17,788 nucleotides of DNA from IMG/VR virus record IMGVR_UViG_2870464427_000002. One strand, written 5' to 3'. Below the pieces are notes generated by a model. The model was given only the letters and a program-made list of their open reading frames with translations. It made no database searches and had not been told where the DNA came from. Numbering within the stretch: position 1 is the stretch's first letter; each line of letters begins with the position of its first letter. Positions 766 through 17,788 of the stretch are shown here, in pieces. The stretch comes from a virus (lineage: Duplodnaviria; Heunggongvirae; Uroviricota; Caudoviricetes). The translations under genes and the position numbers were made by a program.

Positions 766-781
766 TGCCCGGCGTTATTTT
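754..781 (+). terminator. Rho-independent terminator of the nucleotidyltransferase gene
   Basis: CGCCGGGC (754-761), loop GTGAT, GCCCGGCG (767-774), then TTATTTT. The 8-bp stem is perfect, and the T-tract is present only on the plus strand. Confidence 0.6.
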
Positions 782-1235
782 ACGGCTGATATTGCCAGCT
801 ACTGACTAAAGCGTACAAGTGGTTTGGAGAATAGCGCCAGCTTTCCTTCAGTTGCAGAAATTCAGCACAAAATTCACTGCAAAACAGGCGATCGCGCTGT
901 TCTTTATTACCGATAATAATTCCTAATGCTCCGCGCCAGTCATATTTTTTGCCATCATGTTTACGGAAAAAAGTTTCCACATCCTGAAGGCTGGCCTGGA
1001 GCGGCAGCATATCCCACTTATCCGCTGGCAATGGCATTATTTTTCCGCGTACACCGCGATCGCGCAGTGATGCGGAGTAACAAAGGTATCTCTTTTCACC
1101 ATGCTTAACGGCTAATTCACAGTGGGAATAACTACCGCGTGTGATTTTACGGGTAAGCCAGTCAGCCAGTCGGGCAATACCACGGTGCTCTGTTCGGCCC
1201 TTATAACAAGCGAGCCAGACAGTGGTTTTACTCAT
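780..1235 (-). CDS. Permuted papain-like (YiiX/YaeF, peptidase C92 / NlpC-P60 superfamily-like) protein; last gene of the tail operon
   Basis: 151-aa ORF whose ATG overlaps the upstream Tfa stop (ATGA at 1232-1235). His-before-Cys order: SYSHCEL at about residue 36-42, then GKKYDWRG...LFCSEFCAEF at about residue 95-126. This resembles the YSH ... G.PYD ... YCSE pattern of C92 amidases (recognised from memory). Confidence 0.6.
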   Translation of the reverse strand: MSKTTVWLACYKGRTEHRGIARLADWLTRKITRGSYSHCELAVKHGEKRYLCYSASLRDRGVRGKIMPLPADKWDMLPLQASLQDVETFFRKHDGKKYDWRGALGIIIGNKEQRDRLFCSEFCAEFLQLKESWRYSPNHLYALVSSWQYQP

Positions 1236-1939
1236 GGTTGCCAGCCTGTTGAATAATCGTAGTCGAGCACCGCCTGAATATCGTCCAGTGCTTCCACCGC
1301 CGCGATATGACGCTGGGCGTTTGCGAACAAGCGCATATCGTGATCCATGGTGACCGATTCAAACTGGGCAGCGATTTCGTTGGTTAACTCAATCAGACCA
1401 TTATTTTTAGTTTTCCACATTAACCCTGGCGGAATTTTTTTCTCCGCTCCCATTTTTGTGAGTGAAAGCTGTTGGATACGGCTATTTGTATCACTGTGGA
1501 AGTGATGGTTGTTGATGATGATGTAATCGGTTGTGATGGCATCGCGTTGATTTTTGATTGCAGAGTATTTCGCCTCTTTAGCATCGGTTATAGATGGTTG
1601 CCATTTTTCACCATCCCAACGTTCAAAAGAACCTGTCGGGGAAATGACTGTTACATTTTCAGGTAATTGGCCCAATTCTTGAATAATAAGCTGGCTACCA
1701 TCAACTTTGTTATAAACAGTTTGGCCTCGATGATCTTCAATAAGTCTCCATGTTTCATTCTCCCACACTGGAGTAAAACCAGGAGCCTTTTCGGGAGGTG
1801 AAATTAATGTGCAATAATTTGGCAAGCCTGTATTAGGTGCAATGTATGCATCAGACTCACCGATATATTCTTGGGAGTCTTGTGAAAAATTATATACAGT
1901 TAGTATTTGAGCTTCATCAGAAAAGGTAAAAGTATTCAT
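1232..1939 (-). CDS. Tail fibre assembly chaperone, chimeric (lambda Tfa-like N-domain plus DUF4376-like C-domain)
   Basis: 235 aa. The N-terminal part ([25 protein letters not shown] ... [34 protein letters not shown] ... ERWDGEKW) aligns by eye with lambda Tfa-type chaperones. The C-terminal half is a different module. ATGA overlap with the fibre stop. Confidence 0.85.
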
Positions 1940-3516
1940 GCTAGCCTCACAATATAGTTGAATGCGATATTTTTGACGGTGTTTTCGGTGCTGCCGGTAT
2001 TATTAATGGTTAGGGAGTGGTTATGGGAACCAAGTGCAATTGAATGCGAATGGGTGCCGAGCGCAACAGTGTGCGAATGGGAACCAATTGTAACACTATG
2101 AACGTGTGATGGAACATTAATTGCCAAAGATGATCCGGTACCAGGGCCATATGATGTCCAGTCGCCTTGGCCCTCTGGTGAAGATGTCCCTGTTCTTACT
2201 GTTGCAGTTGCCGAGCCTGAGCCAGATGAACTTGTTGTTTTATTTCCATGGTTAAATGATGATGCAGTTTTAGTCCCCAAGTCTGTGAGGGGTGTGGTTT
2301 TCGTCCCTAAATCAGTACTCGAAATACTGCCCGTATGGTTATGTGATTTAACTCCATCCAGTTCAGTAGATAATATAGCGCGCCCACTGGATGGTTTTCC
2401 TTTAATTATCCATCCGCGCATATCAGGAATAACACCAGATGGATATGCAATTGCCAGTTTGGGATAGGAGGTTTTATTAAATGTCTGACCTGTCATCAGA
2501 GCGTAGCCTGAAGGTACAGAATCAGATGGCCAGGGAATAGGCATCCCAACAGGACAGCTTTCCGCAGCAATAGCCTTATCCATCGCTGCCTTAACCGCGT
2601 TCGGCGTCGCAGCTTCCGTCGTACTGGTGCTGTTGGTCGCATTATTAAGTTTCACGACCCCTTTTTGTGTCAGCGTACCGTCGGGGATACCTGTTATTTG
2701 CCCCCAGGCATGGGTATGGCTGGACGGCGCCGCAGCAATAGCCTTGTCCATCGCTGCTTTAACCGCACTTGGCGTTGCAGCTTCCGTTGTACTGGTGCTA
2801 TTTGTTGTGTTGTTAAGTTTAACGACTCCTTTCTGCGTCAGTGTACCGTCAGGGATACCAGTAATCTGATTCCAGGCATGAGTATGACTGGTTGCGGCTT
2901 TGCTATTTGCCAGGTCATATGCCGTTTTTACCGCTTTTGGCGTGGCTGCTTTAGTCTCATCATCGCTATTAGTTGCATTACTGAGCTGCGTAAAACCTTT
3001 TTGTGTCAGCGTCGCATCAGGATGATTTCGTGATTGCTGATGTGTTTTCAACGCGTCATCGACATATTCCCTGGTTGCCACAACGACTGAAGGGTCGATC
3101 AAAAGCGTCACCGCGTCTGCATTGGTGACTTCCATGACCGCGCGTATAACGATTTGCTTACTGGCCCCCGCAGGTAATCGTGGCTTATAGGTTTCCGGGA
3201 ATTTACCAATAGCGACCAGCGTGCCGTCGGTATCCAGTAACCCAACTTCGCGTACATACCAGCCTCCGACTTGTTCGGGAATAATCGCTTCTGCGATAAC
3301 CCAGGCCGGATTATCTGGCGCAATTTTTAATGTATTGAGCTGACCACGCCAGACCTCATGGACTACTTTGGTCTGACTTTCTGTCGGTTCGATATATTTA
3401 CCATTACCGTCGCCAACTACCATAGTTTGCAGACGGATCTGTTTTTGCTCGGCCAGTGCTGAGGCAATTTTGGCTTTGCCTGCAGCAGTTAATATTGTAA
3501 AAAATTCACTTGCCAT
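1936..3516 (-). CDS. Tail fibre (P2 gpH / Mu S-like N-terminus; fibre repeats; tail-collar domain with HxH-rich tip)
   Basis: I place the true start at ATG 3516 ([18 protein letters not shown]...), 2 nt after the gpI-like stop. The tracked ORF extension to 3639 overlaps gpI. The N-terminus (TMVVGDGNG...HEVWRGQLN...[29 protein letters not shown]) is P2 H-like. There are three TLTQKG...ATNS...EAATP.AVK fibre repeats. The collar reads [23 protein letters not shown]...IPDMRGW. The C-terminus carries SHNH, SHVHS, SHSHT, THSHS and SHNHS motifs and ends [11 protein letters not shown]. Confidence 0.9.
2564..2899. repeat. In-frame tandem duplication, 2 x 168 bp (56 aa), inside the fibre gene
   Basis: GCAGCAATAGCCTT starts at 2564 and again at 2732. 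The units encode SHTHAW(N/G)[20 protein letters not shown](T/A)[12 protein letters not shown](S/N)[13 protein letters not shown] more diverged third copy follows, roughly 2900-3040. Confidence 0.85.
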
Positions 3517-3518
3517 TA

Positions 3519-4235
3519 TTACTCCGGATATACAGACATAATTTCGGTGCTCCAGTATCCTGTGCCGACCTTCATCGGTTGGGATTGTGTAAGGCGATCG
3601 GGTTGATAAGGTAGTAGTTGGATATATTCCTCCACACAATAACCCGTCGCTAAAAATATTCCTGATGACTGGCTGAGGCTTTCTGCAACAGGAGGCAATA
3701 CTGTAATGACTTCCCCTCCTTGCATGGCGCTGCCAATAACTGGTATTGGGCTTCGATTAATAAGCCAAATAACAATGCTTTCCAGCTTTGAACGAACATT
3801 TTTATATTCATGAATTAATGTGATAAGTGCATTGAATTCATCTTCATTTAATCCTTTTTCCTCTAGTGTAATATTTACCTTAAAAAAATAAGCCCTTCCC
3901 CCATATTCAAACCATTCTGAAATAGTTCCGGGTAAGGAAAGTATTTCCAGCACTCGCCGTACCGCCCAAATTGTTCCTTTATATTTATGCAGTTCAATGG
4001 CTTGTTTAATTAACTCGCGTTTCTCCCGCTCATCGGTGGTAAATAACCAACCTTCCAGCCCCTGAACGTGAAATTGTTCTGCAAGGGCTGGTAATGCCGA
4101 AGCATCAACCAGGTCGACCAGATAAACCATCAACGCCGTCAGATCGAGTTGGGCAAAACGCTCGGCGGCGATGTTTGCCAGAATCGAAAAACGCTCATCG
4201 CTGGCAAGCGGCGGCGGTGGCAGCAATTTATCCAT
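3519..4235 (-). CDS. Baseplate/tail protein, P2 gpI-like (Mu gp48 slot), with a C-terminal extension
   Basis: I prefer ATG 4235 ([27 protein letters not shown]..., GGAG 9 nt upstream, 8-nt overlap with the J stop) over the tracked TTG at 4250. The LLPP..L..ER start and the position after J match gpI. At 238 aa it is longer than P2 gpI. Confidence 0.8.
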
Positions 4236-5343
4236 CGCTGACTCCGGCAATCGTGACGTCTATTGCAGTGCATTCCGCCCATTCATGCGCCTGCAAAATA
4301 CGTTTTGTAGGCATATTCAGCGCAACGTCATAGACGCCATCGACCTGTAACACTTTGATTATCTGGTTTGGCACAATGTCCTGCCCCAGATGTTTCTGCC
4401 GCTGTTGCGTCCAGAGGCTAATCGCTTTACGCGCCGCAGCCAGCGTTGTCTCCTGATCGGCGGTGGTAAACAGCATTAGCTGCGCACGGATCTCATACGG
4501 CACTCGAAGAGCGCATTTCGCACTCACTTTGTCGGTCAGCGGTCGTTTTTTCTCCTTGCTGACTTCTTGTTCAATCTGCGCCAGCAACTCCGTGCCGGGT
4601 AGACCATTCAGGGTTAGCGGGTAGATCTCCACGCAGCCTTCTGGCAATCCCTCGTCCGGCCCCAGTACTGCAACGTCAATAATCGACTGGCTAACAGAAA
4701 GCGTATGAAAGCGGTAGGCACCATAGCTGCCCGCATTACTAAAGCTTTCTGGTGCCAGTTGGATACGCTGGCGCAATGCGTCATCGCTCTCTTCACCGCA
4801 GCCGCCCGTTGACGCAGTCAGGTTGGTTACGTTGATGTCATAATGACCAATCCTGTCGACCAGTGCGCTAATTTGTGCAGGCTGCCAGCCGTTACCCTGT
4901 TCACCTGCTGCGAGGCTGGTGGCAGGAACGGCGATATGCAAACTCCTGGCCGGAAGCAGAACATCTTCATCGGTGGCGAACATCACGCTATCAGAGGCAC
5001 TGGCCCGCGTCCCCTGGGGAATCAGGATATTGCCGGGATACGCACTAACGACCGAAAACTGCAACGTCGTTTTTGCAGGCTGCGCAGGCAAACGGTGAAC
5101 TCCCACCAACTCCCCTAAATAATCCAGCATTGGCGCGCGGGAATACGCGACCAGGTTTTGTTTCGCCGCTTCCTGAATGGCGATGCGTACAAGGTTTTCA
5201 CGATAGGCAAACAGGTCGATGAGCAACCGCTCAGCCTGTGCCGGATAGAGTTTTTTACCACTGGCATCTTCGTATTGCGCAATCATCTCACTGGTAATTT
5301 GCGCAGGATCGCGGTCAATAAAATTGGGTTCGGCTATCGCCAT
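4228..5343 (-). CDS. Baseplate wedge protein, P2 gpJ / Mu gp47-like
   Basis: 371 aa. N-terminus FIDRDPAQITSEMIAQYEDASGKKLYPAQAERLLIDLFAYRE is typical of the Baseplate_J family. It overlaps the W stop by 10 nt. Confidence 0.9.
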   Translation of the reverse strand: MAIAEPNFIDRDPAQITSEMIAQYEDASGKKLYPAQAERLLIDLFAYRENLVRIAIQEAAKQNLVAYSRAPMLDYLGELVGVHRLPAQPAKTTLQFSVVSAYPGNILIPQGTRASASDSVMFATDEDVLLPARSLHIAVPATSLAAGEQGNGWQPAQISALVDRIGHYDINVTNLTASTGGCGEESDDALRQRIQLAPESFSNAGSYGAYRFHTLSVSQSIIDVAVLGPDEGLPEGCVEIYPLTLNGLPGTELLAQIEQEVSKEKKRPLTDKVSAKCALRVPYEIRAQLMLFTTADQETTLAAARKAISLWTQQRQKHLGQDIVPNQIIKVLQVDGVYDVALNMPTKRILQAHEWAECTAIDVTIAGVSDG

Positions 5344-5693
5344 AACACCTCCGTTGAGTTGATAACGCCGTCAGCGGCGCGCCATTGCACACGTAACGTC
5401 AGATGTTCGCCGTCGATTACTGGTGTCACCTTCAGCAACCGACAGCGCGGTTCCCACTGGCGGATGGCTTCCACCGACTCCCGTACCACATGCGGGATAG
5501 CCCGCTCGATGGGGTAATCGATGTAGTGCCACAAGTTGCTGCCAAACAGCGGTCTGTGGGGATCACTGCCGCGCGGTGTACGCAGAATGATGTGTATTGC
5601 CTGGTGAATATCATCCAGCCCGCAGACGTATTCTTCAGGCCGCTGCAAGGCCGGTTGCCAGTGCAGCGTTGAGGGGCGTGTTTTTGTGTTCAT
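5334..5693 (-). CDS. Baseplate wedge protein, GPW/gp25 family (P2 gpW-like)
   Basis: 119 aa. GLDDIHQAIHIILRTPRGSDPHRPLFGSNLWHYIDYP aligns with the P2 W core (ILRTP.GSR....YGS). No recognisable Shine-Dalgarno sequence precedes the ATG. Confidence 0.88.
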   Translation of the reverse strand: MNTKTRPSTLHWQPALQRPEEYVCGLDDIHQAIHIILRTPRGSDPHRPLFGSNLWHYIDYPIERAIPHVVRESVEAIRQWEPRCRLLKVTPVIDGEHLTLRVQWRAADGVINSTEVLWR

Positions 5694-5756
5694 GAGGGTA
5701 TTTTCGCCCTGAACGGGCTGTGGAGATATTAAAGCGATTTAGAAAACTGATTGATT

Positions 5757-5786
5757 AAAAAGAGAAAACCCGCCATCAGGCGGGTT
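5757..5786 (-). terminator. Intrinsic terminator inside the tail cluster, between gpV and gpW
   Basis: On the minus strand: AACCCGCC-TGAT-GGCGGGTT followed by TTCTCTTTTT. It starts 5 nt after the gpV stop. Confidence 0.6.
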
Positions 5787-5791
5787 AAAAG

Positions 5792-6493
5792 TCAGTGTGA
5801 ATGGTGGTTGGAGTTGCCACCGCTGTCCTGCAATGCGCCGCTGGCCTGAACGTTGCCGATCACGTTGACATTGCCGGTTATCGTGGCTGCGTTACCGATG
5901 CCTCCACTTCCTGCCATCCCGCCAAGCCAGGTGAGTTTTTTCATTACCGTGACGTTGCCAGTAAAGGTGCTCATGGGCGCATCTACCGTCACTGCTGCTG
6001 CTTTAACCTCGACCTTAGTGGCGTCGATGCTGACATCGGTCGCTTTAACATCGACGGTATCGGAAGTCACGGTGACGTGTTGGGCTTTAATCTCAACGTT
6101 GGGCGATGTCAGGCGGGTGCTGTCGATAACCTCAATCACGATTTTCTCGATACCGCCGTTAATCGTCAGCTGGTGCGTGCTGCGGTCATATTCAAACGCT
6201 GCGCCATCAGAAAACTGGACGTAACGTTTGTCGCGCGAGGCTACAGGCGCGGTGTCAACCGTAGAATAAACGGCACCCAGCACCACGCCATCTTCACCGT
6301 TATCGTCCAGCAGAACTTCCACTTGCTCGCCCATATCCGGTAGCCAGTAGTCTTTATTGTCCTGGGAATTGCGTTGAAGTACCGCAAGCCAGTTGCTCTT
6401 CAGATTGTCACACTCTGGTAGAGTGACCCGTACCCGAACACTGGTTTCGTCAATATCGCTGATAATCCCCGTTTGACGGGTTACTCCTTTCAT
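5792..6493 (-). CDS. Baseplate central spike, P2 gpV / Mu gp45-like
   Basis: 233 aa. The N-terminus is OB-fold-like (GIISDIDETSVRVRVTLPECDNLKSNWLAVLQR). The C-terminus has beta-helix-like repeats (VTVTSDTVDVKATDVSIDATKVEVKAAAVTVDA) and a His-rich tip, NSNHHSH. A strong RBS, AGGAGGAAAT, precedes the ATG. Confidence 0.9.
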   Translation of the reverse strand: MKGVTRQTGIISDIDETSVRVRVTLPECDNLKSNWLAVLQRNSQDNKDYWLPDMGEQVEVLLDDNGEDGVVLGAVYSTVDTAPVASRDKRYVQFSDGAAFEYDRSTHQLTINGGIEKIVIEVIDSTRLTSPNVEIKAQHVTVTSDTVDVKATDVSIDATKVEVKAAAVTVDAPMSTFTGNVTVMKKLTWLGGMAGSGGIGNAATITGNVNVIGNVQASGALQDSGGNSNHHSH

Positions 6494-6502
6494 ATTTCCT
6501 CC

Positions 6503-7543
6503 TTACTGGCTGGTCGCTGGCCCGCGTGACACGTCGATTTCAGTGGTATAGCCGCTGCGCACAAAACTGTGAGTAGATTTATCAATCAGCCACTGACCGG
6601 AAATCACGCCAAAATCGGTCAGTTCAATTTTATTGCCCGCCGTCAGTTCCGGGCAGCCCATCATTGTGAGCGTTCCGGTTTGCTGATATTCGTTGTGGCT
6701 GTCGAGTGCAGCGTTAGCCTTTGCCTGTGCTGCGCCAACGTCCGTCGCCCGACTGTTCAGTTTTAGCGTGTCGGCACTAGTGCCGACTCCACGGACAGAT
6801 GGTTTTTGCTGGCTGTTGTGAGTGTAGATAACCAGTTCTTTTTTCTTACTATTTTGATGCTGTACGGTGGCGTTCTTGTAGATCCGGTTAATGGTGTCTT
6901 TGAAGGTAAAATGAGAAACCTCTTTGCGATCGATCTTTTTCACAGGCGTCAGGCAGCGCAGCGTGGGTAAATGTGAAAAAATCAGCTCTTTTGTCGTCAC
7001 TTTTACGGCATAACCATATTCACTGGCCAGACGTTTGAGAAATCCGACATCGGTTTCACCATACTGCGTTACCCGGTCGATGGTGAGCGACTCGATTTTG
7101 CCCACCAGTTTCAGACCGTGCGTTTGGGCAATACGGCTGGCGATCGCCGAAAGCGTCGTTTCTTCAAAGCCCTGGCTGTTACGGGTGCGCAGCGCCTGAT
7201 TGACGGAAGTGGCGATGCCATCAATATTTACCGTGGAAGGTGGCGCTGAAATATCAATTTTATCAATAATATACTGGCCACAATCGAGCAGCTTTTCCCC
7301 CTGATAACCTATATGCAGCGCCAGCGTATCGCCTTTGCCGGGATACCACTCTTTTATCCAGCGTCCATCTGTGTCATCCAGTGTAATTGCGATGGTATCC
7401 GACTCGTTTTTGATGCTGTCGTGGTAACTGATGCTGGTGACATAGGGTGTGATGTCATAAGTGATATCTTTATGCCCATACCAGAGGGTAAAAATGGGCG
7501 TGAGTGTGGCAAAGACGCCACCAGTTACGCTCATCTCAGCCAT
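6503..7543 (-). CDS. Baseplate hub protein, P2 gpD / Mu gp44 (late control D) family
   Basis: 346 aa. Its position follows X and precedes V. The motifs ETDVGFLKRLASEYGY and the C-terminal GNKIELTDFG...GQWLIDKSTHSF...GYTTEI are typical of the gpD family. Confidence 0.88.
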   Translation of the reverse strand: MAEMSVTGGVFATLTPIFTLWYGHKDITYDITPYVTSISYHDSIKNESDTIAITLDDTDGRWIKEWYPGKGDTLALHIGYQGEKLLDCGQYIIDKIDISAPPSTVNIDGIATSVNQALRTRNSQGFEETTLSAIASRIAQTHGLKLVGKIESLTIDRVTQYGETDVGFLKRLASEYGYAVKVTTKELIFSHLPTLRCLTPVKKIDRKEVSHFTFKDTINRIYKNATVQHQNSKKKELVIYTHNSQQKPSVRGVGTSADTLKLNSRATDVGAAQAKANAALDSHNEYQQTGTLTMMGCPELTAGNKIELTDFGVISGQWLIDKSTHSFVRSGYTTEIDVSRGPATSQ

Positions 7544-7740
7544 GGTGGGATCTCCGATAAGGTTTTATTAACGGAAATGACCGGAATAATGAGCTGAATA
7601 CCGGAAGGCAGTACCGGGTAAATGGCTACATGTGGATTGGCGGCGATTATGCGTTCATAAGCCAGCGCATCACCGTAGTAATGCCATGCCAGGTTATCCC
7701 AGCGTTCGCCATCGGTGGTGATATGTTCAAGGTATCGCAT
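7531..7740 (-). CDS. Tail protein X (P2 gpX-like, LysM-like)
   Basis: 69 aa. TTDGERWDNLAWHYYGDALAYERIIAANPHV...LPSGIQLIIPVI matches the gpX pattern. TAATG overlap with the upstream gene. Confidence 0.85.
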   Translation of the reverse strand: MRYLEHITTDGERWDNLAWHYYGDALAYERIIAANPHVAIYPVLPSGIQLIIPVISVNKTLSEIPPWLR

Positions 7741-11068: not shown

Positions 11069-11158
11069 AATTGTTTCTCTTTAAATATTGATAATGGCCC
11101 GCTGGTTATTTTTCTAAAAAAAGGGGCAGGGAAGAAATAAACCTGACGGGCTTGGGAA

Positions 11159-11183
11159 ACTCGCAGACATCAGGTCTGCGAGT
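11159..11183 (-). other. Perfect 10-bp stem-loop in the chaperone-to-tape-measure spacer
   Basis: ACTCGCAGAC / 5-nt loop / GTCTGCGAGT. The UGA that closes the E'-like frame lies in the loop. No proper U-tract follows. Confidence 0.5.
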
Positions 11184-11391
11184 CATATTCGATTTTTATT
11201 TGGGCGCTGGCTTCATCCAGCCAGTTGCTAAAGTCATCGACGGTAAGGGCGTCTATCTCACTGGGTGGAAAGCGAAACCATCTCGCCAGTAACGCCATCG
11301 CTTGCCATAACAGTGGCGGATTCTGTAGCCACGCTAAGCATGGATTGAAATCGTTTCTGCAATGCCTGGTAATCCAGCAAATCCATTTCAG
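11170..11391 (-). CDS. E'-like extension frame of the tail chaperone, reachable only by a +1 (= -2) frameshift
   Basis: A stop-free frame of 73 codons plus its stop, with no useful start codon. It overlaps the last 134 nt of the gpE-like gene and continues 88 nt beyond it, encoding ...PPSEIDALTVDDFSNWLDEASAQIKIEYDSQT. The span from 11575 to 11170 is 406 nt (3n+1). Confidence 0.5.
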   Translation of the reverse strand: MKWICWITRHCRNDFNPCLAWLQNPPLLWQAMALLARWFRFPPSEIDALTVDDFSNWLDEASAQIKIEYDSQT

Positions 11392-11575
11392 CTAAATCTT
11401 CTGGCACCAGTCCGGTCATTGCCGCCATTAGCGGTTCATCCCACTCTTCAGGTTTTTCGCTGATCCGGCGCGCGTTGCGCATATCTTTTACTTTCAGGCG
11501 ACGTAATTGCAGAGTGTTAATTACGTCTCCCGCCGCTGAAGTAAACGGGAACTGTAAGATATAATGTTCTTTCAT
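11258..11575 (-). CDS. Tail assembly chaperone, P2 gpE-like
   Basis: 105 aa sitting between the tube and tape-measure genes. FPFTSAAGDVINTLQLRRLKVKDMRNARRIS...LVPEDLAEMDLLDYQALQKRF fits the gpE/gp41 chaperone family. RBS is AAGGA. Confidence 0.8.
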   Translation of the reverse strand: MKEHYILQFPFTSAAGDVINTLQLRRLKVKDMRNARRISEKPEEWDEPLMAAMTGLVPEDLAEMDLLDYQALQKRFQSMLSVATESATVMASDGVTGEMVSLSTQ

Positions 11576-11601
11576 TTTGTGTCCTTATTTATTTTGCAAA
11601 G

Positions 11602-11621
11602 TTCGGGGCCGTAGCCCCGAA
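11602..11621 (-). terminator. Stem-loop between the tube and chaperone genes (weak terminator or attenuator)
   Basis: TTCGGGGC / 4-nt loop / GCCCCGAA. On the minus strand it is followed only by CTTTGC, so termination is probably partial at most. Confidence 0.4.
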
Positions 11622-11625
11622 TAAC

Positions 11626-12150
11626 TTAGCCACCGATGTTATTGCGATAGGTACTTAATTGATCCACACCATTAACCCGGAAAATATTGGCCATATAATC
11701 AAGTTCAAGCAGCGTTTCACCATCAACTACTTGTTTAATATAAGTGCAACCAAAGGCGCTGCTGAATTCCGGGTTTTCATTCTGTTTAAATGTGCCCAGT
11801 GGATTCTTTTTAAACATCACGGTTAAATGTGTCACTAGCGCTAATTGATTCGCTTTCCCCTGGGAGTTATAGCAATCAATACTGGAGCGGCACTGTAATG
11901 CAACCGCCTGCCACGGGTTTGCCGTTTTACGCATTACGTCCTGATAGAAGGAGTTCCATTTAATTTCGCCCTCCAGTTTATCGAAACCCGCCGGGAGTTC
12001 GATTTTACCCACCATGCCCAGTGCTTTATGCTCCTGCATAATTAAACTGACATCCGGCAATTTAATTTCGGTTGCACGACCTAAAAGGTTATTACCATCG
12101 AGATAAATATTGGCGTTGGTAATACGGTTAATTTGAATTTTTCCAGCCAT
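11626..12150 (-). CDS. Tail tube protein (P2 FII-like)
   Basis: 174 aa directly after the sheath gene (TAATG overlap). ITNANIYLDGNNLLGRATEIKLPDV...GMVGKIELPAGFDKLEGEIKWNSF matches the contractile-tail tube family. Confidence 0.9.
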   Translation of the reverse strand: MAGKIQINRITNANIYLDGNNLLGRATEIKLPDVSLIMQEHKALGMVGKIELPAGFDKLEGEIKWNSFYQDVMRKTANPWQAVALQCRSSIDCYNSQGKANQLALVTHLTVMFKKNPLGTFKQNENPEFSSAFGCTYIKQVVDGETLLELDYMANIFRVNGVDQLSTYRNNIGG

Positions 12151-13573
12151 TAGCTATTGCTCTCCAGAGAGACTAAATATTCAGAAGTAATTTCAGTTTC
12201 AAACGTCAGACGTTCCAGCGGCGGCGGCGGGGTGAATTTATAGCTCAGCAATAAATGCCCAGCGCTGAGTTCAGTCGGTGAATTTCGCGCCGGATCGTAC
12301 CAGCATTCAAAGCCAAGCAGTGCGCCGTCGGCAATCAGCTTACGGCCCCAGGTATTTACCGATTCGGTCAGGGCATCAATCAGCGCCTGATTAATCGGCA
12401 TATCAATATACTGCTGACTGAAATAACGGATTGACTCATTAATTACATCGCCTGTCCGGCGGACGTTTTCAAAGTTACGCATATGGGTCACGGTAGGCCA
12501 CGCTGCAGTGCGGTTGCCCCACAAGCGCAGACCAGAGCCGTAACTATTGAAAATAGTGGTAATGCCGTTTTCGTTTAGCTGATTCACTTCGCTTTGTGGA
12601 TCATCAATCATTGCGGAAAGCGAACGTTCAATACCGGTAATACCCTGAATTTCTTGGTTTGAGTTGCTCCACCAGAAACCTTTTTCGAGGTCTACTTTGG
12701 CACGTAGCCCGGCAGCGCGCGAAGAGAGCGGTTCGAGAACTTCCTGGTTAGTGATGCCATCGTAAACTTTGACGTGTGGGTAACATAAACGCGCACGATC
12801 AGAGCTGGTGTTGAAGTTGATAGCCCCTTGCGAACCGCGTCCTGCCAATACCTGCTGGAATGTCGTCCCAATCGGGGCATCAATGTAGGTAATCGCACCA
12901 AGTTTTTCCGCTTGTGCAATCAGCTCTGTAGTTACTGATTTTTGCGTACAGAACACGGGAGCAAGCAGGATTTTGGCGTAGAAACCATACAGGTTATAGG
13001 TGTCCTGTAGCAGTTTCATCCCCGTGCGGTCGCCTGCGGTATTTACGGTACCGATAATATCGGCTGCGGTGACCTTTGTAGGGTCGCACCAGGAATAATA
13101 GGCACAAACTTTCGCACCAGGAGGAATGTCGGCTCCTTTACGGGTAATTATGCCTGTTTGTTCATCTACGCTAAATGCTGCGGTGTTAAAGGTTGATGAA
13201 TTTGATGAAGAGGGCTTTAGTACCACGTTACGCACATTGCGGTGAGCGAGCTTCGCCTGGTTGTTAGCATCAAAAGTGATACTCTCATTGCTGATGTTGG
13301 AGCCATGTTTTGCCGGATCCAGCACGTTAATCACCACCACCGTACCGGCACCGTGGTCATAAATTGCCTTCAGTGCCTGTGGGATCGTAAAGTTAGCCTG
13401 AGTCGAGCCAAACTGCGCAGCATCGCTTTCAGAAAGGCATAATGTTGGTTTATTTACCGGACCGCAGGGGCTGTACCGATTAAAGCGATGACGGCGGATT
13501 TTACCGCTTTAACCGGACGCGGGCCGGTTTCAATTTCAATAGTTTCTACACCGTGCAGATAATTAGCTGCCAT
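12150..13573 (-). pseudogene. Tail sheath gene (P2 FI / Mu L family) broken by a 1-nt frameshift
   Basis: ATG 13573 opens MAANYLHGVETIEIETGPRPVKAVKSAVIALIGTAPAVR*, with the stop at 13454-13456. The sheath sequence continues in the -1 frame as PCGPVNKPTLCLSESDAAQFG...VVVINVLDP down to 12150. One extra C in the C4 run (plus-strand GGGG, 13467-13470) restores a 474-aa ORF. Confidence 0.8.
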
Positions 13574-13760
13574 GTACAATTTCCTCTACGTTATTTTGTT
13601 CTTCCTGAGTGATGACAGGAGTCAGATGATTGCGGGCAATCATGGTCATGACCCACTCGTTGTCTTCTGGCAGATCAATTTCACTGTTCGGCCACAATAA
13701 GATTTCTTGTCCATCGGCAAGGGTGACGCCGCTTGCTGGGCCGTTGTAGATGTATTTCAT
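13563..13760 (-). CDS. Small tail-associated protein (Mu-like gp38 / DUF2635-type slot)
   Basis: 65 aa. ATGA overlap with the upstream gene, and its end overlaps the sheath start by 11 nt. Size and position match the small ORF that precedes the sheath gene in Mu-like tails. Family recall is from memory only. Confidence 0.55.
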   Translation of the reverse strand: MKYIYNGPASGVTLADGQEILLWPNSEIDLPEDNEWVMTMIARNHLTPVITQEEQNNVEEIVHGS

Positions 13761-14212
13761 TCAGTTTCCTCGTAGTTAACTTCCGTAAGCAGGGGAAGAT
13801 CCGTGCTTTCCTGTTCAGCGATAAATAGCGAGCTGGTCGCCATTTCCAGGATGTAGCGGCAGAAACCGCCGCTCTCACCCGTATTAATTTCTTTTTCAAG
13901 CCAAAGAAGACGATCGCAATCAGGAAGCTGAAGGCCACCCAATGCGCTGCGTATGTGATCAAGTGCGTTTAATGCATCACAATTTTTGCCAACAATAACG
14001 GTGGCGGTTAAGCGGAGTATTTGCTGTTGCACGATGGCATTACTGCTTTCGGGCGTAGCAAAGACAGAACCGCTATAATTAATAATCACTGCAACTCGTT
14101 GTGTCTGTGGAATATATTTCTGGGCATCCTTAGATGAAATAAATATATCCATTTCGGAGTTGTGTTCACGTAATCTGGTCACAACAGAATTCATTACAGA
14201 TAAAATTTCCAT
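13757..14212 (-). CDS. Tail completion/terminator-like protein (Mu-like gp37 / DUF1834-type slot); first gene of the tail operon
   Basis: 151 aa. It is the first ORF after a strong terminator and a promoter-like region. The N-terminus ILSVMNSVVTRLRE resembles gp37-family starts. The assignment rests on position plus a weak pattern match. Confidence 0.5.
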   Translation of the reverse strand: MEILSVMNSVVTRLREHNSEMDIFISSKDAQKYIPQTQRVAVIINYSGSVFATPESSNAIVQQQILRLTATVIVGKNCDALNALDHIRSALGGLQLPDCDRLLWLEKEINTGESGGFCRYILEMATSSLFIAEQESTDLPLLTEVNYEETE

Positions 14213-14275
14213 ATAGGCTGTACCTTAATTACCGCTCACTTCGTTATCGTTGAAATGTATTCTGAAGCAGCGAAG

Positions 14276-14284
14276 GTGAAGAAT
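14276..14284 (-). promoter_or_regulatory. ATTCTTCAC motif upstream of the tail operon (candidate activator-dependent promoter element)
   Basis: The identical 9-mer occurs upstream of the lysis operon at 15627-15635. Here TCTTCA-N17-TACATT gives a poor -35 and a fair -10. ATTAAAAG lies immediately 5' of the motif. Confidence 0.3.
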
Positions 14285-14319
14285 CTTTTAATGTGATTTA
14301 GAGAAAAAATTGAATGGTT

Positions 14320-14353
14320 AAAAAAATCCCCACCCTTACATAAGGGTGGGGAT
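14320..14353 (-). terminator. Strong intrinsic terminator separating the lysis cassette from the tail operon
   Basis: On the minus strand: ATCCCCACCC-TTATGTAA-GGGTGGGGAT followed by TTTTTT. It starts 3 nt after the stop of the 104-aa gene. A T-run is also present on the plus strand, so it could act in both directions. Confidence 0.8.
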
Positions 14354-14356
14354 TTT

Positions 14357-14671
14357 TCAATAACTGCCACGTTGTAACAGCTCGATTTTGCTATATAAGG
14401 CATCCAGCTTCGCTTCTAATACTGCTTGCCCACGAAGATAATCTTCTCTGCGGACATAATGCAGCGGAAGCTCGGCACGAAATTCGAGAAATTCTCTTTC
14501 CAGTTTCGACCAACTTGTTTCTGATTCCCGGCGCGCGTTTTCCAGAGATTCAAAACGCTCATTAAGTCGTTTTTCAATTTGTGCTAACAGCAGTTTTCCG
14601 GCAGCAAACATTAATCCAACGAAGGAAAGCATAAGGGAGATCACTTCCCAAAAATCGATACTGAGTTTCAT
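14357..14671 (-). CDS. N-terminal TM plus coiled-coil lysis accessory protein (i-spanin-like or Mu gp25/DUF2730-like)
   Basis: 104 aa. One TM segment (WEVISLMLSFVGLMFAAGKLLL) followed by heptad-like helices (IEKRLNERFESLENARRESE...LEAKLDALYSKIELL). RBS is AGAGGGG. It is the third gene of the lysis cassette. Confidence 0.55.
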   Translation of the reverse strand: MKLSIDFWEVISLMLSFVGLMFAAGKLLLAQIEKRLNERFESLENARRESETSWSKLEREFLEFRAELPLHYVRREDYLRGQAVLEAKLDALYSKIELLQRGSY

Positions 14672-14683
14672 CGGCCCCTCTGA

Positions 14684-15289
14684 TTAATGAAGACAGCTTG
14701 CCTGTCCCCAGAGTAAATAGCGGGCGGCATGTTGATAGAGGATCATCTTTGGATAGCGACGATTTTCTCGCCAGTTCGTGGCGCTGCGCCCGGCGTTGAC
14801 TTGCTCAACATGACCAAACCAGCTAGTGGCATCTAACCCTTTGGATGCAGCCAGTTTTTTATCCCGGTTAACCCACCCCTGACCGCCGTTATAGGCGCTT
14901 AGGGTAAACGCCATACGCTGACAATCATTTTTCGCAGAGATGTTTTTCCACAAATGCTGGTCATATTGCACCAGCGCGCGAATCGCCCAGGTTGGGTTAT
15001 ACGGTTTGTTTTCACGCAATTGTGGATACAACTGGCTTATCCATGTCGCTGTAGCAGGCATAAATTGCGCCATACCTTGTGCGCCAACGGGGGAACGTAC
15101 CATTGGCTGCCAGGCGGACTCCTGGTGTAATTGCCCGGCAAAGTCGGCCACTGGGGCATTCAGCCCCCAGACTTCTCGAGCTGTACGAATTAGTTCGTTT
15201 CGCCATGCCAGAGAGGCTCTCGGCGGTTCAGAGGCGTTGAGTGGGAAAAGAACGAAAATAATCATAGACGCGATATATTTCAGCCACAT
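14684..15289 (-). CDS. Lytic transglycosylase (SLT domain) endolysin with an N-terminal signal or signal-anchor
   Basis: I prefer ATG 15289 (MWLKYIASMIIFVLFPLNASEPP...), 2 nt after the upstream stop. The tracked start at 15388 overlaps the holin-like gene. SLT motif: LHQESAWQP...GAQGMAQFMP.TA...SAYNGG. Confidence 0.85.
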   Translation of the reverse strand: MWLKYIASMIIFVLFPLNASEPPRASLAWRNELIRTAREVWGLNAPVADFAGQLHQESAWQPMVRSPVGAQGMAQFMPATATWISQLYPQLRENKPYNPTWAIRALVQYDQHLWKNISAKNDCQRMAFTLSAYNGGQGWVNRDKKLAASKGLDATSWFGHVEQVNAGRSATNWRENRRYPKMILYQHAARYLLWGQASCLH

Positions 15290-15291
15290 CA

Positions 15292-15579
15292 CTATAGCCC
15301 TAACGCGACGGAAAGGCAGACGGCAGCAACGATGATAGCCCGGCGAATCATTGCCGCCGCGCAGCAACGCGGTTCCTTCCAGGGGCAAAAAGAGTCAGGC
15401 CGTGCCCAGGGGAACAAACTGCGATCGAGCCAGTATCCCAGCACCGCGGAAAGCGAAACCAGGCTTAGTTTATAAATGACGACCGGGATTTGTGCTGAAG
15501 AGGTCCAGCCGATCACGACAAACAGCGCGACGGAAGCGACCAGCCAACCGGAAAGCCGGGGAAGAGTGACTTTTTTCAT
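15292..15579 (-). CDS. Small three-TM membrane protein, putative holin
   Basis: 95 aa with three hydrophobic segments (WLVASVALFVVIGW; IPVVIYKLSLVSLSAVLGYWL; AIIVAAVCLSVALGL). It is the first gene of the cassette, immediately upstream of the endolysin. RBS is AGGAG. Confidence 0.5.
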   Translation of the reverse strand: MKKVTLPRLSGWLVASVALFVVIGWTSSAQIPVVIYKLSLVSLSAVLGYWLDRSLFPWARPDSFCPWKEPRCCAAAMIRRAIIVAAVCLSVALGL

Positions 15580-15626
15580 ACGGTATCTCCTGATAAGTGA
15601 GCGTTTAGTGTCGCCAGAACCCGCCA

Positions 15627-15635
15627 GTGAAGAAT
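15627..15635 (-). promoter_or_regulatory. ATTCTTCAC motif upstream of the lysis operon (candidate activator-dependent promoter element)
   Basis: Same 9-mer as at 14276-14284, lying 48 nt upstream of the holin-like ATG. ATTAAAG lies 8 nt further 5'. Confidence 0.3.
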
Positions 15636-15853
15636 GAAAAAAGCTTTAATAAATAAGTTTAAAAAATAGATTCTCTATAAATGAACATGCCCGCTAATAA
15701 ATCCACTCAGCAATTAAAGAGCAAAAGGTGACCTCGCGAATAAGCGCGTCATTATGCAGGGAAAAGATGATGGTGAATCGTAGGAATAGTCAGTAGTTAT
15801 TTGATTTTTAAAGTTTGTTTAAGAAAGTCAGCGACTGTGAGGGAAACGATCTT

Positions 15854-15881
15854 TTTACACTACAAGTAAAAATAATACTGT
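15854..15881 (+). promoter_or_regulatory. Candidate rightward sigma70 promoter overlapping the left SOS half-site
   Basis: TTTACA (15854-15859), a 16-nt spacer, then TACTGT (15876-15881). The -10 candidate is the left arm of the reconstructed LexA box. In the present state it points into the IS. Confidence 0.3.
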
Positions 15882-15889
15882 ATGTGTAT
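15876..15889. promoter_or_regulatory. Left half of an IS-split LexA (SOS) box
   Basis: TACTGT+ATGTGTAT directly abuts the IS left end. Confidence 0.7.
15882..15889. repeat. Target-site duplication, left copy (ATGTGTAT)
   Basis: Identical 8-mer at 17206-17213, immediately outside both inverted repeats. Confidence 0.85.
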
Positions 15890-15919
15890 GGGTCTTCCCT
15901 TGTTGTGGTGGCTGAAGGC
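15890..15919. repeat. IS left inverted repeat
   Basis: GGGTCTTCCCTTGTTGTGGTGGCTGAAGGC, compared with the reverse complement of the right end, GGGTCTTCCCCGATCATGGTGGGAAGGC. The first 10 nt are identical and the TGGTGG and GAAGGC blocks are shared. Confidence 0.8.
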
Positions 15920-15956
15920 ATGATAATGGTGTATTTAATCGCCAGAGGTCACCGCC

Positions 15957-17177
15957 ATGGACGAAAAGTCCCTCTACGCTCATATTCTCAACCTGTCCGA
16001 TCCGTGGCAGGTAAAGTCCCTTTCTCTCGATGAAAATGCCGGTTCTGTTACTGTCACTATTGAGATCGCTGAAAACACCCGGCTAGCCTGTCCGACCTGC
16101 GGTAAATCCTGTTCTGTTCACGATCACCGTCATCGTAAATGGCGCCATCTTGATACCTGCCAGTTCACCACTATTGTTGAAGCCGATGTTCCACGAATTA
16201 TGTGTCCGGAGCATGGCTGCCTGACGTTGCCTGTTCCGTGGGCTGGCCCCGGAAGCCGGTATACGTTGCTATTCGAATCGTTCGTTCTCTCATGGCTGAA
16301 AATCAGCACCGTTGATGCTGTCAGGAAGCAACTTAAGCTCAGTTGGAATGCGGTTGACGGCATTATGACCCGGGCAGTTAAGCGAGGTCTTGCCCGGATA
16401 AAAAAGCCATTATCCGCCCGTCATATGAATGTGGATGAGGTCGCCTTTAAAAAAGGACATCGTTACATAACGGTGATCTCCGATCGCGATGGTCGGGCGC
16501 TGGCCTTAACGGATGATCGCGGCACAGAGAGTCTTGCCGGCTATCTTCGCACGCTCACTGATGGGCAGTTGCTGGCTATCAAAACGCTCTCAATGGACAT
16601 GAACGCGGGCTATATAAGAGCAGCGCGTATCCACTTACCCAGTGCGGTTGAGAAAATCGCCTTTGACCGCTTCCATGTGGCGAAGCAACTGGGCGAGGTA
16701 GTTGATAAAACCCGTCAGAATGAACATCCGCACCTCCCTGTTGAAAGCCGACACCAGGCAAAAGGAACCCGCTTCCTGTGGCAGTACAGCGATAAGTGGA
16801 TGACCGAATCCCGGCAGGAAAAGCTGATGTGGCTGCGTGCACAGATGAAGCTGACGAGCCAGTGCTGGGCGCTGAAAGAGCTGGCAAAGGATATCTGGAA
16901 CAGGCCATGGAGCGAGGAAAGACGGAGTGACTGGCAGAGATGGTTGGCGCTGGCGGCTAACAGTGACGTTCCCATGATGAAAAATGCCGCGAAAACGATA
17001 GGAAAAAGGCTGTACGGGATCCTGAATGCGATGCGACACAGTGTCTCAAACGGAAATGCGGAGGCACTTAACAGCAAGATCAGGCTGCTGAGGATAAAAG
17101 CCAGGGGATACCGAAACCGGGAGCGCTTTAAACTGGGGGTGATGTTCCACTACGGAAAGCTGAATATGGCGTTCTGA
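15957..17177 (+). CDS. ISL3-family transposase
   Basis: 406 aa. N-terminal zinc-finger (CPTCGKSCSVHDHRHRKWRHLD), a DDE_Tnp_ISL3-type core (MNVDEVAFKKGHRYITVISD) and the C-terminal GNAEALNSKIRLLRIKARGYRNRERF. The stop lies just inside the right inverted repeat. Confidence 0.9.
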   Translation: MDEKSLYAHILNLSDPWQVKSLSLDENAGSVTVTIEIAENTRLACPTCGKSCSVHDHRHRKWRHLDTCQFTTIVEADVPRIMCPEHGCLTLPVPWAGPGSRYTLLFESFVLSWLKISTVDAVRKQLKLSWNAVDGIMTRAVKRGLARIKKPLSARHMNVDEVAFKKGHRYITVISDRDGRALALTDDRGTESLAGYLRTLTDGQLLAIKTLSMDMNAGYIRAARIHLPSAVEKIAFDRFHVAKQLGEVVDKTRQNEHPHLPVESRHQAKGTRFLWQYSDKWMTESRQEKLMWLRAQMKLTSQCWALKELAKDIWNRPWSEERRSDWQRWLALAANSDVPMMKNAAKTIGKRLYGILNAMRHSVSNGNAEALNSKIRLLRIKARGYRNRERFKLGVMFHYGKLNMAF

Positions 17178-17205
17178 GCCTTCCCACCATGATCGGGGAA
17201 GACCC
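17178..17205. repeat. IS right inverted repeat
   Basis: GCCTTCCCACCATGATCGGGGAAGACCC, the reverse-complement partner of 15890-15919. Confidence 0.8.
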
Positions 17206-17213
17206 ATGTGTAT
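17206..17213. repeat. Target-site duplication, right copy (ATGTGTAT)
   Basis: Identical to 15882-15889. Confidence 0.85.
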
Positions 17214-17219
17214 ACAGTA
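17206..17219. promoter_or_regulatory. Right half of an IS-split LexA (SOS) box
   Basis: ATGTGTAT+ACAGTA directly abuts the IS right end. Confidence 0.7.
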
Positions 17220-17240
17220 TCGTGTAAAATGATACACCTG

Positions 17241-17271
17241 TTGACAAGAAACATAACGCAAACAATATATC
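17241..17271 (+). promoter_or_regulatory. Candidate sigma70 promoter for the Mor-like gene
   Basis: A perfect -35 TTGACA (17241-17246) followed 17-19 nt later by AATATATC. There is no perfect -10. It would give a leader of about 165 nt. Confidence 0.35.
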
Positions 17272-17440
17272 TATTTCATGAATTTATGGCGTTCATTAAT
17301 ATTAAAAATTTATATTTTTGTTAATTGTTTATTTGTTTGTTGAATGTATTGAGTAGCAGTAATGACAACTGCTTAGCGTATATCCGTGGTTTTACACGCA
17401 TCGGGTCTTATTCAGGATGCAAGATATATGGAGATGAAAA

Positions 17441-17788
17441 ATGATACGAAAATCAAAAGAGATGGCCCGGACACCGGAGATCATTAACGACCTGGCTTTT
17501 CATGCATCGCAAGTTCTGATTGAAAGCATCAATCTCGACAGTTCATCGGCAGAAAATGTGGGCTTTGCCATTGCCGACCGAATGATGCGTAACTGGGGCG
17601 GACAAAGCATTTATTTCCCTAAGGGGATCTCCGGACGAGCATCGGAGCGTGACTACCAAATCTATAGCGAGTGCGATGGGCGCAACTACGCCGAATTAGC
17701 GAAGAAATATAATCTGACGCTGCAATGGATTTATAAGATTGTGAAACGCGTACATGCGGAAAAGCAACAGCGCCGCAGTAATTCGTAA
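17441..17788 (+). CDS. Mor/C-family transcriptional activator (Mu middle/late regulator family)
   Basis: 115 aa ending in TAA at the window edge. NWGGQSIYFPKG...SERDYQIYSECDGRNYAELAKKYNLTLQWIYKIVKR matches the Mor family core and its C-terminal HTH. RBS is GGAG. It is divergent from the lysis/tail cluster. Confidence 0.85.
   Translation: MIRKSKEMARTPEIINDLAFHASQVLIESINLDSSSAENVGFAIADRMMRNWGGQSIYFPKGISGRASERDYQIYSECDGRNYAELAKKYNLTLQWIYKIVKRVHAEKQQRRSNS

Follow-up and report, generated by a model that had tools for sequence, protein, structure and literature searches.

The DNA analysed here is the 17,788-nucleotide stretch filed as IMG/VR virus record IMGVR_UViG_2870464427_000002, subsequently designated the window. 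Between positions 780 and 15579 its minus strand carries genes for a holin, an endolysin with an SLT domain and a membrane protein, followed by those for a complete contractile tail, and a gene for a Mor-type transcription activator lies divergently at the far end. The full window matches the chromosome of Escherichia coli EC0585 (NZ_CP195049.1), from which it differs by one base. On this chromosome the genes follow in the order rluF, yjbD, a slipin-family gene, a nucleotidyltransferase gene, the phage-like cluster, the insertion sequence (IS) ISKox3, the Mor-family gene, lysC with its riboswitch, and pgi. The island is placed between yjbD and lysC, the start of which lies 55 bp past the Mor gene, and genome comparison revealed that the same interval comprises just 252 bp in strain K-12. 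An earlier note on this DNA had proposed a head-less R-type tailocin that carries its own activator and is probably controlled by the SOS response, and it is this proposal that the evidence below concerns.

Gene roles were assigned by scans with the Pfam and PHROG families, while colinearity was assessed by tblastn searches with all proteins of phage BcepMu. Every gene that the earlier note had named is present at its place and has strong support from both collections (Table 1). The set of contractile-tail proteins is full, including sheath, tube, tape measure, chaperones, hub, spike, wedge and fibre, and the terminator expected after the lysis genes is found as well. The 17 tail genes, however, do not form the one tightly coupled run that had been described, as this is broken by a terminator and a promoter-like motif between genes V and W (5725-5785). 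The divergent gene encodes a genuine member of the Mor/C family, i.e. its Mor domain scores 129 bits versus a cutoff of 24.9 (PF08765) and comes with a C-terminal helix-turn-helix. The protein also matches the PDB entries of Mu Mor (1rr7, E=5e-8) and Mu C and is 49% identical to BcepMu gp01. The 104-residue product of the third lysis-cassette gene is not an Rz-type spanin: the protein is a homologue of BcepMu gp25 and has no match to gp23 or gp24. It is the best conserved of the three lysis proteins (90% identity to the Salmonella protein). BcepMu and carotovoricin, a tailocin of Pectobacterium, differ from the island in having Rz/Rz1 and an Rz-size gene, respectively. The fibre gene is annotated in RefSeq by the Prokaryotic Genome Annotation Pipeline (PGAP) as two "incomplete" pseudogene fragments; its frame is in fact open for 526 codons and encodes the normal fibre domains.

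Table 1. Features of the window, with positions counted from its first nucleotide and the support for each assignment.
Feature	Position	Strand	Support
Terminal 151-aa gene; start overlaps the Tfa stop	780-1235	-	phrog_1128; 78% identity to Salmonella STM4198, same position
Tail-fibre assembly chaperone (Tfa)	1232-1939	-	Pfam DUF4376 and Caudo_TAP; PHROG tail-fibre assembly families
Tail fibre, 526 aa, open reading frame (ORF) uninterrupted	1936-3516	-	Pfam Phage_tail_fib, Phage_fiber_2 (three times), Collar
Baseplate protein I (P2 gpI-like)	3519-4235	-	Pfam Tail_P2_I E=6e-33
Baseplate protein J	4228-5343	-	Pfam Baseplate_J E=3e-63; 51% identity to BcepMu gp50
Baseplate wedge protein W (gp25-like)	5334-5693	-	Pfam GPW_gp25; 61% identity to BcepMu gp49
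Late-promoter-like motif TTTTCTAAATCGCTTTAATATC upstream of W	5725-5749	-	Position weight matrix (PWM) scan and sequence
Terminator after V	5757-5785	-	PWM scan and sequence
Baseplate spike V	5792-6493	-	Pfam Phage_base_V
Baseplate hub D	6503-7543	-	Pfam Phage_GPD; 44% identity to BcepMu gp47
Tail protein X	7531-7740	-	Pfam Phage_tail_X E=2e-23
gpU-like tail protein, C-terminal coiled coil	7740-8693	-	Pfam Phage_P2_GpU E=6e-34; phrog_788
Tape measure protein	8693-11068	-	Pfam PhageMin_Tail; colinear with BcepMu gp44
E' extension ORF, overlapping and out of frame with E	11170-11391	-	Reading-frame search
Tail assembly chaperone E	11258-11575	-	Pfam Phage_TAC_7; matches BcepMu gp41/gp42 (with E')
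Tail tube	11626-12150	-	Pfam Phage_tube E=4e-56; 69% identity to BcepMu gp40
Tail sheath, frameshifted in the window	12150-13573	-	Intact 474-aa form: Pfam Phage_sheath_1/1C; 71% identity to BcepMu gp39
65-aa protein, BcepMu gp38 homologue	13563-13760	-	phrog_895; tblastn match to gp38
Tail completion protein of the Gp37 family, opening the tail operon	13757-14212	-	Pfam Gp37 E=6e-33
Late-promoter motif TTTTTTCTCTAAATCACATTAAAAGA, candidate Mor-binding site	14284-14309	-	Conserved in 8 loci, 5 genera
Intrinsic terminator after the lysis cassette	14320-14352	-	Sequence
104-aa membrane/coiled-coil protein	14357-14671	-	phrog_462; 46% identity to BcepMu gp25
SLT-domain lytic transglycosylase (endolysin)	14684-15289	-	Pfam SLT; phrog_669 endolysin; 53% identity to BcepMu gp22
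Holin	15292-15579	-	Pfam Holin_2-3 E=2e-27; phrog_1528 holin
AT-rich block GCTTTAATAAATAAGTTTAAAAAAT, 64-88 nt upstream of the holin start	15643-15667		Alignments; core TTTAATAAATAA(G/C)TTTA invariant, five genera
Left half of the LexA box, TACTGT plus spacer copy ATGTGTAT	15876-15889		Comparison with IS-free copy
ISKox3 (ISL3 family), 1316 bp	15890-17205	+	NCBIfam transpos_ISL3 (NF033550) E=2e-96; annotation; bounds from IS-free copy
ISKox3 transposase gene	15957-17177	+	NCBIfam transpos_ISL3
Right half of the LexA box, ATGTGTAT plus ACAGTA	17206-17219		Comparison with IS-free copy
Invariant GTGTAAAATG	17222-17231		-10 TAAAAT toward Mor, or -35 TTTACA toward holin
Mor/C-family late transcription activator, 115 aa	17441-17788	+	Pfam Mor (PF08765) E=7e-38; phrog_532 late transcriptional activator

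Genes for head formation, packaging, replication or integration were detectable neither in the window nor within 15 kb on either side of it in EC0585, and over the same distance no capsid, portal, terminase, transposase or integrase gene of a phage flanks the cluster. The annotated genes in these flanks are all chromosomal, and the same applies to four further E. coli alleles and to Salmonella. The proposal that the cluster is head-less depended on what lies beyond the Mor gene. Since lysC and not a head or packaging gene is located there, with nothing phage-like following within 15 kb, the observation that the earlier note had itself named as fatal to its proposal was not made.

The cluster is strictly colinear with the late part of BcepMu: tblastn matched gp01 (the Mor/C-like late activator), gp21 (holin), gp22 (SLT), gp25 and gp37 to gp51, in this order. 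No trace was found in the window of gp02-gp20, which include the repressor, the transposase and other early genes, of gp23/24 (Rz/Rz1), or of gp26-gp36, which encode terminase, portal, protease, capsid and adaptor. The nearest complete phages are BcepMu, phiE255, Klebsiella phage KP12 and Escherichia phage PhiKM, with identities of 71-74% for the sheath and 44-49% for Mor. KP12 has the same orientation as the window, and its head block and early region are still present. This colinearity also settles the question of lineage, as what had been taken for a hybrid of Mu-like gene order and P2-like proteins is the known BcepMu architecture. Phages of this type resemble the island in their colinear late region, in the late-promoter motif described below and in the possession of a single Mor/C-type late activator that is divergent from the lysis and late genes. 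They differ in being complete, i.e. they have repressor, transposase, terminase, portal, capsid and Rz/Rz1 genes, in the lack of evident control by a LexA box and in not being fixed at one locus.

The regulatory side of the proposal concerns the DNA between the holin and Mor genes, which comprises 537 bp in intact copies. A near-consensus LexA box and the invariant GTGTAAAATG are present in this region in all nine loci compared, which represent five genera. The box matches the LexA consensus at 18-19 of 20 positions and is located 238-309 bp upstream of the Mor start and approximately 300 nt from the holin start. Mean column identity of the holin-Mor intergenic DNA around the box is 61%, and the regulatory elements are better conserved than this neighbouring DNA. 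The presence of a LexA box in the control region, as claimed before, applies to the copies without the IS, whereas in the window the box is split by ISKox3; accordingly, no CTGT-N8-ACAG with up to one mismatch was detectable in the control region of the window. Removal of ISKox3 and of one copy of its target duplication from the sequence restores TACTGTATGTGTATACAGTA, which agrees with the consensus at 18 of 20 positions and is identical to the IS-free copies. In the intact copy, the box has the form of a LexA operator (CTGT-N8-ACAG) and overlaps candidate promoters in both directions; in the window, this operator is destroyed. When read rightward, GTGTAAAATG provides the -10 hexamer TAAAAT and the box covers the -35 region and the spacer. 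When read leftward, the -35 hexamer is TTTACA and the -10 hexamer is TACAGT, the far half of the box. A hydrophobic ORF of 21 codons (MNLWRSLILKIYIFVNCLFVC; approximately 17277-17342) between the box and the Mor gene was dropped as a candidate, because it is not conserved in Salmonella; it also has no obvious ribosome-binding site.

A second class of elements is found in front of the late genes. All taxa carry TTTTTTCTCTAAAGCAGATTAAAAGA upstream of the Gp37 gene, just past the terminator, with a conserved -10-like hexamer nAnAAT 19 nt downstream, which places the motif at about -52 to -33 relative to the predicted start. Mor-type activators bind at about -52 to -33 in Mu, and members of the Mor/C family act on promoters without a -35 hexamer via a site that is centred near -43. 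In BcepMu, the 17-mer TAAAGCCGATTAAAAGA occurs in exact form at two sites, in front of the holin gene and of gp32 (the head protease gene), while 0.11 matches are expected by chance, and in the carotovoricin locus TTTTTTCTAAAACAGATTAAAAGC precedes Gp37. The element GCTTTAATATC in the gap between V and W is common to the island, BcepMu and carotovoricin. Upstream of both Gp37 and W, the motifs are located at a fitting distance from a -10-like hexamer, as predicted for Mor sites. For the lysis operon, the AT-rich block in front of the holin gene, which varies little among the five genera, is a candidate promoter or activator site. A PWM derived from the Gp37-upstream motif had no clear same-strand match upstream of the holin gene; it returned only AT-rich blocks that are related to the motif but spaced differently, and a look-alike on the plus strand at 15803-15827. 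Taken together, these arrangements support a putative relay, in which LexA represses the Mor gene and Mor in turn activates the late promoters.

The same elements could be wired in a different manner, which we regard as unlikely: LexA might directly repress a leftward promoter of the lysis and tail genes (TTTACA-16-TACAGT, overlapping the box), and Mor could be constitutive, autoregulated or serve only as a booster. Indeed, this promoter is the sole sigma-70-like match that the scan returned in the control region, its -35 hexamer is provided by the invariant GTGTAAAATG, and its disruption by the IS would silence the cluster, which fits a viable host. However, the box is roughly 300 nt away from the holin start, the lysis and tail genes are set apart by a terminator, and the tail and W operons have BcepMu-type late-promoter motifs of their own, which implies that they depend on an activator. 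Phages of the BcepMu type have no late activator other than their Mor homologue.

The distribution of the island is also informative. A survey of 5426 complete E. coli genomes found its core (4228-15579) in 200 of them (3.7%), always in single copy and on the chromosome, with 95-100% identity. The four diverged E. coli alleles that were inspected occupy the same locus and have the same gene set with intact tail genes. Their fibre genes range from 1611 to 1827 nt, and both fibres and Tfa proteins differ between them, the latter also in length. The orthologous island of Salmonella is STM4198-STM4219 beside lysC, with gtrABC inserted in the V-W gap. In a cross-genus scan, which took one genome per species, the island also adjoined lysC-pgi in Dryocola, Phytobacter and two Superficieibacter species. 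Syntenic homologues of the cluster, for which the earlier note had recommended a search, are found in five genera in total. Sheath homologues with 79-90% identity are additionally named from E. albertii, Citrobacter, Enterobacter and Lelliottia, in these cases as sequence matches. Between E. coli and Salmonella, the ratio of nonsynonymous to synonymous divergence (dN/dS) is 0.04-0.24 for the 17 island genes with estimable dS, a range that does not extend to the 151-residue protein, the fibre and Mor, for which dS is saturated. The dS values of the island are 0.6-2.5 and thus comparable to that of lysC (1.26). As the head-less cluster is fully open-reading and constrained over the distance between E. 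coli and Salmonella, it should be in use rather than in decay. What is found is a cluster that is maintained by selection at a fixed chromosomal locus and has a diversifying fibre, as is characteristic of a tailocin.

We consider it probable, with a likelihood of roughly 0.7, that the region derives from a transposable phage of the BcepMu type, which lost its head on domestication, and now forms an R-type tailocin island with a fixed place between yjbD and lysC. In its main lines the original proposal of a head-less, probably SOS-controlled R-type tailocin with a Mor-type activator thereby survives, owing to synteny, purifying selection and the LexA box in nine loci. In intact copies, LexA bound to the operator in the 537-bp holin-Mor region would keep the system off. 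DNA damage would remove LexA, allowing the Mor-type activator to be made, which would then turn on late promoters carrying the motif TAAAG-N3-ATTAAAAGA. Its predicted targets are the motif upstream of Gp37, the variant upstream of W and the related block upstream of the holin gene. Tails would assemble, holin and SLT transglycosylase would lyse the producer cell, and the released particles would kill related strains, with the variable pair of fibre and Tfa setting the targets.

Several observations weigh against this interpretation. No spanin pair of the Rz/Rz1 type was detectable in the cluster, neither as an embedded ORF with a lipobox nor as a match to gp23/gp24 by tblastn, and without spanins disruption of the outer membrane is unexplained. 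The AT-rich block upstream of the holin gene resembles the motif upstream of Gp37, but its spacing differs. The direction of the LexA-controlled promoter is ambiguous as judged from the sequence. The orthologous Mor gene appears to be missing from a list of the Salmonella SOS regulon that comprises 48 nalidixic-acid-induced loci with LexA boxes, as far as can be told from the STM14 number range that we presume to lie beside lysC. Synteny across genera could in part stem from transfer by recombination in the flanks and not from vertical descent. Finally, our literature search returned no paper that calls the island a tailocin; STM4219 turned up in a motility screen alone, and the Salmonella literature names the locus a phage remnant carrying gtrABC.

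The latter designation corresponds to a further explanation, according to which the island is an inert prophage remnant, i.e. a decaying piece of a BcepMu-like phage that retained tail genes without present function. The copy in the window, which carries an IS and a frameshift, the pseudogene label that PGAP attached to the fibre gene and the occurrence in merely 3.7% of complete E. coli genomes are all in line with the treatment of the Salmonella orthologue as a remnant. We nevertheless judge this explanation very improbable: none of the approximately 20 ORFs is broken in any of the other copies examined from five genera, dN/dS is as low as given above, the regulatory elements are conserved above the surrounding intergenic DNA, and the fibre ORF is actually open. 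Similarly improbable is a particle that serves another purpose, such as cargo delivery to eukaryotic or bacterial cells in the manner of an extracellular contractile injection system (eCIS), provision of tails or lysis for another element, or service mainly as an SOS-triggered lysis module, for although a conserved terminal gene (780-1235) accompanies the cluster, the lysis genes are among the most conserved ones (the membrane protein being 90% identical to that of Salmonella) and morons gather in the V-W gap, Pfam scans revealed no eCIS hallmark families (AAA+ ATPase, sheath sets of the Afp/PVC type), the nearest homologous head-less cluster is that of carotovoricin, a bactericidal tailocin of the same architecture, and the variation of fibre and chaperone from strain to strain is what killing of particular strains would predict.

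The relationship of the tailocin island to carotovoricin deserves closer comparison. Sheath homologues from Pectobacterium are 76-77% identical to that of the island; one of them belongs to a complete Mu-like prophage and the widespread one to a head-less cluster, which is the carotovoricin locus. A study from 2026 describes this locus as a defective prophage for a Mu-type tailocin, which is subject to SOS control and has no repressor linked to it, and carotovoricin is SOS-inducible (PMC13566846). Both clusters lack head genes and present a Holin_2-3 gene, an SLT gene, a gp25-like gene, a terminator and the late-promoter motif, followed by the tail genes in the shared order Gp37, 65-aa protein, sheath, tube, tail assembly chaperone, tape measure protein, U, X, D, V, W, J, I and fibre. 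Sixteen proteins match in order with identities of 28-76%, sheath and tube reaching 76% each, and the same promoter motifs precede Gp37 and W. In contrast to the island, the carotovoricin cluster has no Mor gene or LexA box in it or beside it, rdgA and rdgB being located elsewhere. It also keeps an Rz-size gene and a gp26-like gene, both missing from the island, and occupies another chromosomal locus. In pairwise comparisons, the carotovoricin sheath is 81-83% identical to the sheaths of KP12 and the Pectobacterium prophage versus 76% to that of the island. Carotovoricin was considered as an orthologue of the island and rejected, as it is closer to complete phages. Since this is the case, one phage family was probably domesticated twice in parallel; affinity to complete phages, lysis-side genes and locus all differ, which argues for separate events.

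Induction of carotovoricin reportedly requires RecA, the cleavable repressor RdgA and the Mor homologue RdgB (work of Liu, Chatterjee & Chatterjee in 1994). The records of phiE255 and KP12 label their Mor homologues "RdgB". A search with the Mor protein of the island found close relatives and did not reach RdgB of Pectobacterium, so the link between Mor and RdgB is made through these record annotations and the work just named. Because RdgB of carotovoricin is reportedly Mor-like, a Mor-type activator for a tailocin is not new. Of the circuit that had been called unusual, the Mor-type activator under SOS control must therefore be given up as a novelty, having a precedent in the homologous carotovoricin; the combination of a LexA box with a linked activator stands. 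What differs here, on the evidence of the sequence, is the linkage of the activator in cis and the use of a host LexA operator in place of a dedicated repressor of the RdgA/PrtR type.

Parallels to other systems are looser. R-pyocins of Pseudomonas aeruginosa likewise consist of a head-less contractile tail with a lysis cassette at a fixed site, and RecA-dependent de-repression leads via an activator to expression of tail and lysis genes. They differ in their P2/PS17-like tail, in the dedicated cleavable repressor PrtR and in the activator PrtN, which is not a member of the Mor family. Colicin operons place a suicidal bacteriocin that is coupled to lysis under the direct control of a host LexA operator, but colicins are single-protein toxins with neither an activator tier nor a phage tail. 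BceTMilo of Burkholderia and the Rp4 syringacin of Pseudomonas syringae are also tailocins that arose from temperate myophages by deletion of head genes. Neither is of the BcepMu type: BceTMilo is P2/KL3-like and has Ogr and a CI-type repressor, and Rp4 has SfV/Mu-like tail proteins. In Burkholderia strain J2315 a mobile element between the regulatory genes is associated with a low yield of particles, which parallels the IS in the present case. The "tailocin" of E. coli sequence type ST131 (PMC9205054) was considered as identical with the island and rejected, since it is a P2-like prophage that is complete, head genes included, and occupies another locus. Taken together, lineage and logic of the island both have precedents, to which the island adds a regulatory twist.

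The copy in the window is damaged at two sites. ISKox3, which is not part of the original system, has terminal inverted repeats, with ends that read GGGTCTTCCC and GGGAAGACCC, and is flanked by the 8-bp target duplication ATGTGTAT. LexA binds as a dimer that requires both half-sites, and this copy has therefore lost its SOS control. If a promoter overlaps the box in either direction, ISKox3 splits this promoter as well and the cluster would be silenced, in agreement with a viable host. Alternatively, if there is another Mor promoter downstream of the IS, expression would be constitutive. The second lesion is located in a run of G residues in the sheath gene (13466-13470), which comprises four G in the window and five in EC0585, MRY15-117 and MS6198. 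This deletion of one nucleotide shifts the sheath frame at about codon 36 and may be a true mutation or a sequencing error in a homopolymer. Owing to the IS in the operator and the frameshift in the sheath gene, the copy in the window is probably not functional, i.e. either inactive or deregulated.

Disruption of the operator by ISKox3 is not restricted to this copy. The control region of the island is split or incomplete in approximately 10 of 196 matching E. coli genomes. In isolate 648, another allele of the island carries ISKox3 at precisely this position; here the duplication is the allele-specific ATATGTAT and the flanks differ from those of the window at 13 positions per side. These differences indicate an independent insertion event. 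Altogether, ISKox3 is located exactly between CTGT and ACAG in four cases, namely in the two alleles of the island, in tisB/istR and in a plasmid-borne umuD, always in the same orientation and with duplication of the 8-bp spacer. The insertion in the tisB/istR LexA box is present in many genomes. From the 891 E. coli records matching the left junction, a spread sample of 60 was drawn; in nearly all of its rows that bear the IS, the match extends 12-20 nt into the flank, which corresponds to the LexA half-site. In view of the four precise insertions and the half-site flanks in this sample, ISKox3 appears to prefer LexA operators as targets.

A more far-reaching reading joins both parts, namely an ancient tailocin that predates the Escherichia/Salmonella split, arose independently of carotovoricin and receives its input through one LexA operator and one Mor protein, with the operator being at the same time a specific landing site for ISKox3. 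We advance this reading tentatively and at somewhat less than even odds. If both parts are true, E. coli and Salmonella would own an unrecognised SOS-triggered weapon, and there would be an IS that seeks SOS operators and frees genes from LexA control. Should intact copies make particles, about 4% of complete E. coli genomes would own a chromosomal SOS-triggered contractile bacteriocin and, most likely, so would many Salmonella (the "phage remnant" STM4198-STM4219) and several other enterobacterial genera. As far as our literature search showed, such a bacteriocin is undescribed. Its existence would bear on strain competition in the gut, on cell lysis after treatment with DNA-damaging antibiotics and on the choice of scaffolds for engineered tailocins. 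With a LexA operator, one Mor-type activator and a shared late motif, the predicted circuit would be a compact example of a phage cascade that was trimmed during domestication. Insertion of ISKox3 in LexA operators could explain how tisB, umuDC and the island became uncoupled from LexA in clinical lineages.

Some further observations concern the flanks and the terminal gene. The left neighbour of the cluster, the nucleotidyltransferase gene (1-765), is convergent as had been noted, but it is not a plain chromosomal gene, being itself accessory DNA that is absent from K-12. The same applies to the slipin-family gene, which together with it separates yjbD from the tail cluster in E. coli; in Salmonella, other genes are found at this place. 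For both genes and for the 151-aa gene, PADLOC and NCBIfam returned nothing useful, and Rfam at the gathering threshold had no match in the window. Entries of phage collections that match the island include records that do not represent phages, such as a 501-kb whole-genome shotgun contig of Salmonella Infantis and fragments of 1.5-4 kb labelled "Salmonella phage S.Kent 1-2-1" and "Escherichia phage ECO95 1-6-1". As these entries are not phage genomes, matches to them are no evidence of a virion. The 151-residue protein has no match in Pfam or NCBIfam; besides phrog_1128, a weak, non-significant match to a cysteine peptidase was all that turned up. A homologue with 39% identity is encoded in a locus of Haemophilus haemolyticus that was reached via its Mor homologue, and the gene may be a cargo or immunity gene. 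The V-W gap (5694-5791), finally, is a recurrent insertion site, which harbors gtrABC in Salmonella and an AbiJ-like gene with an AbiJ_NTD4 domain in a Mu-like prophage of Pectobacterium.

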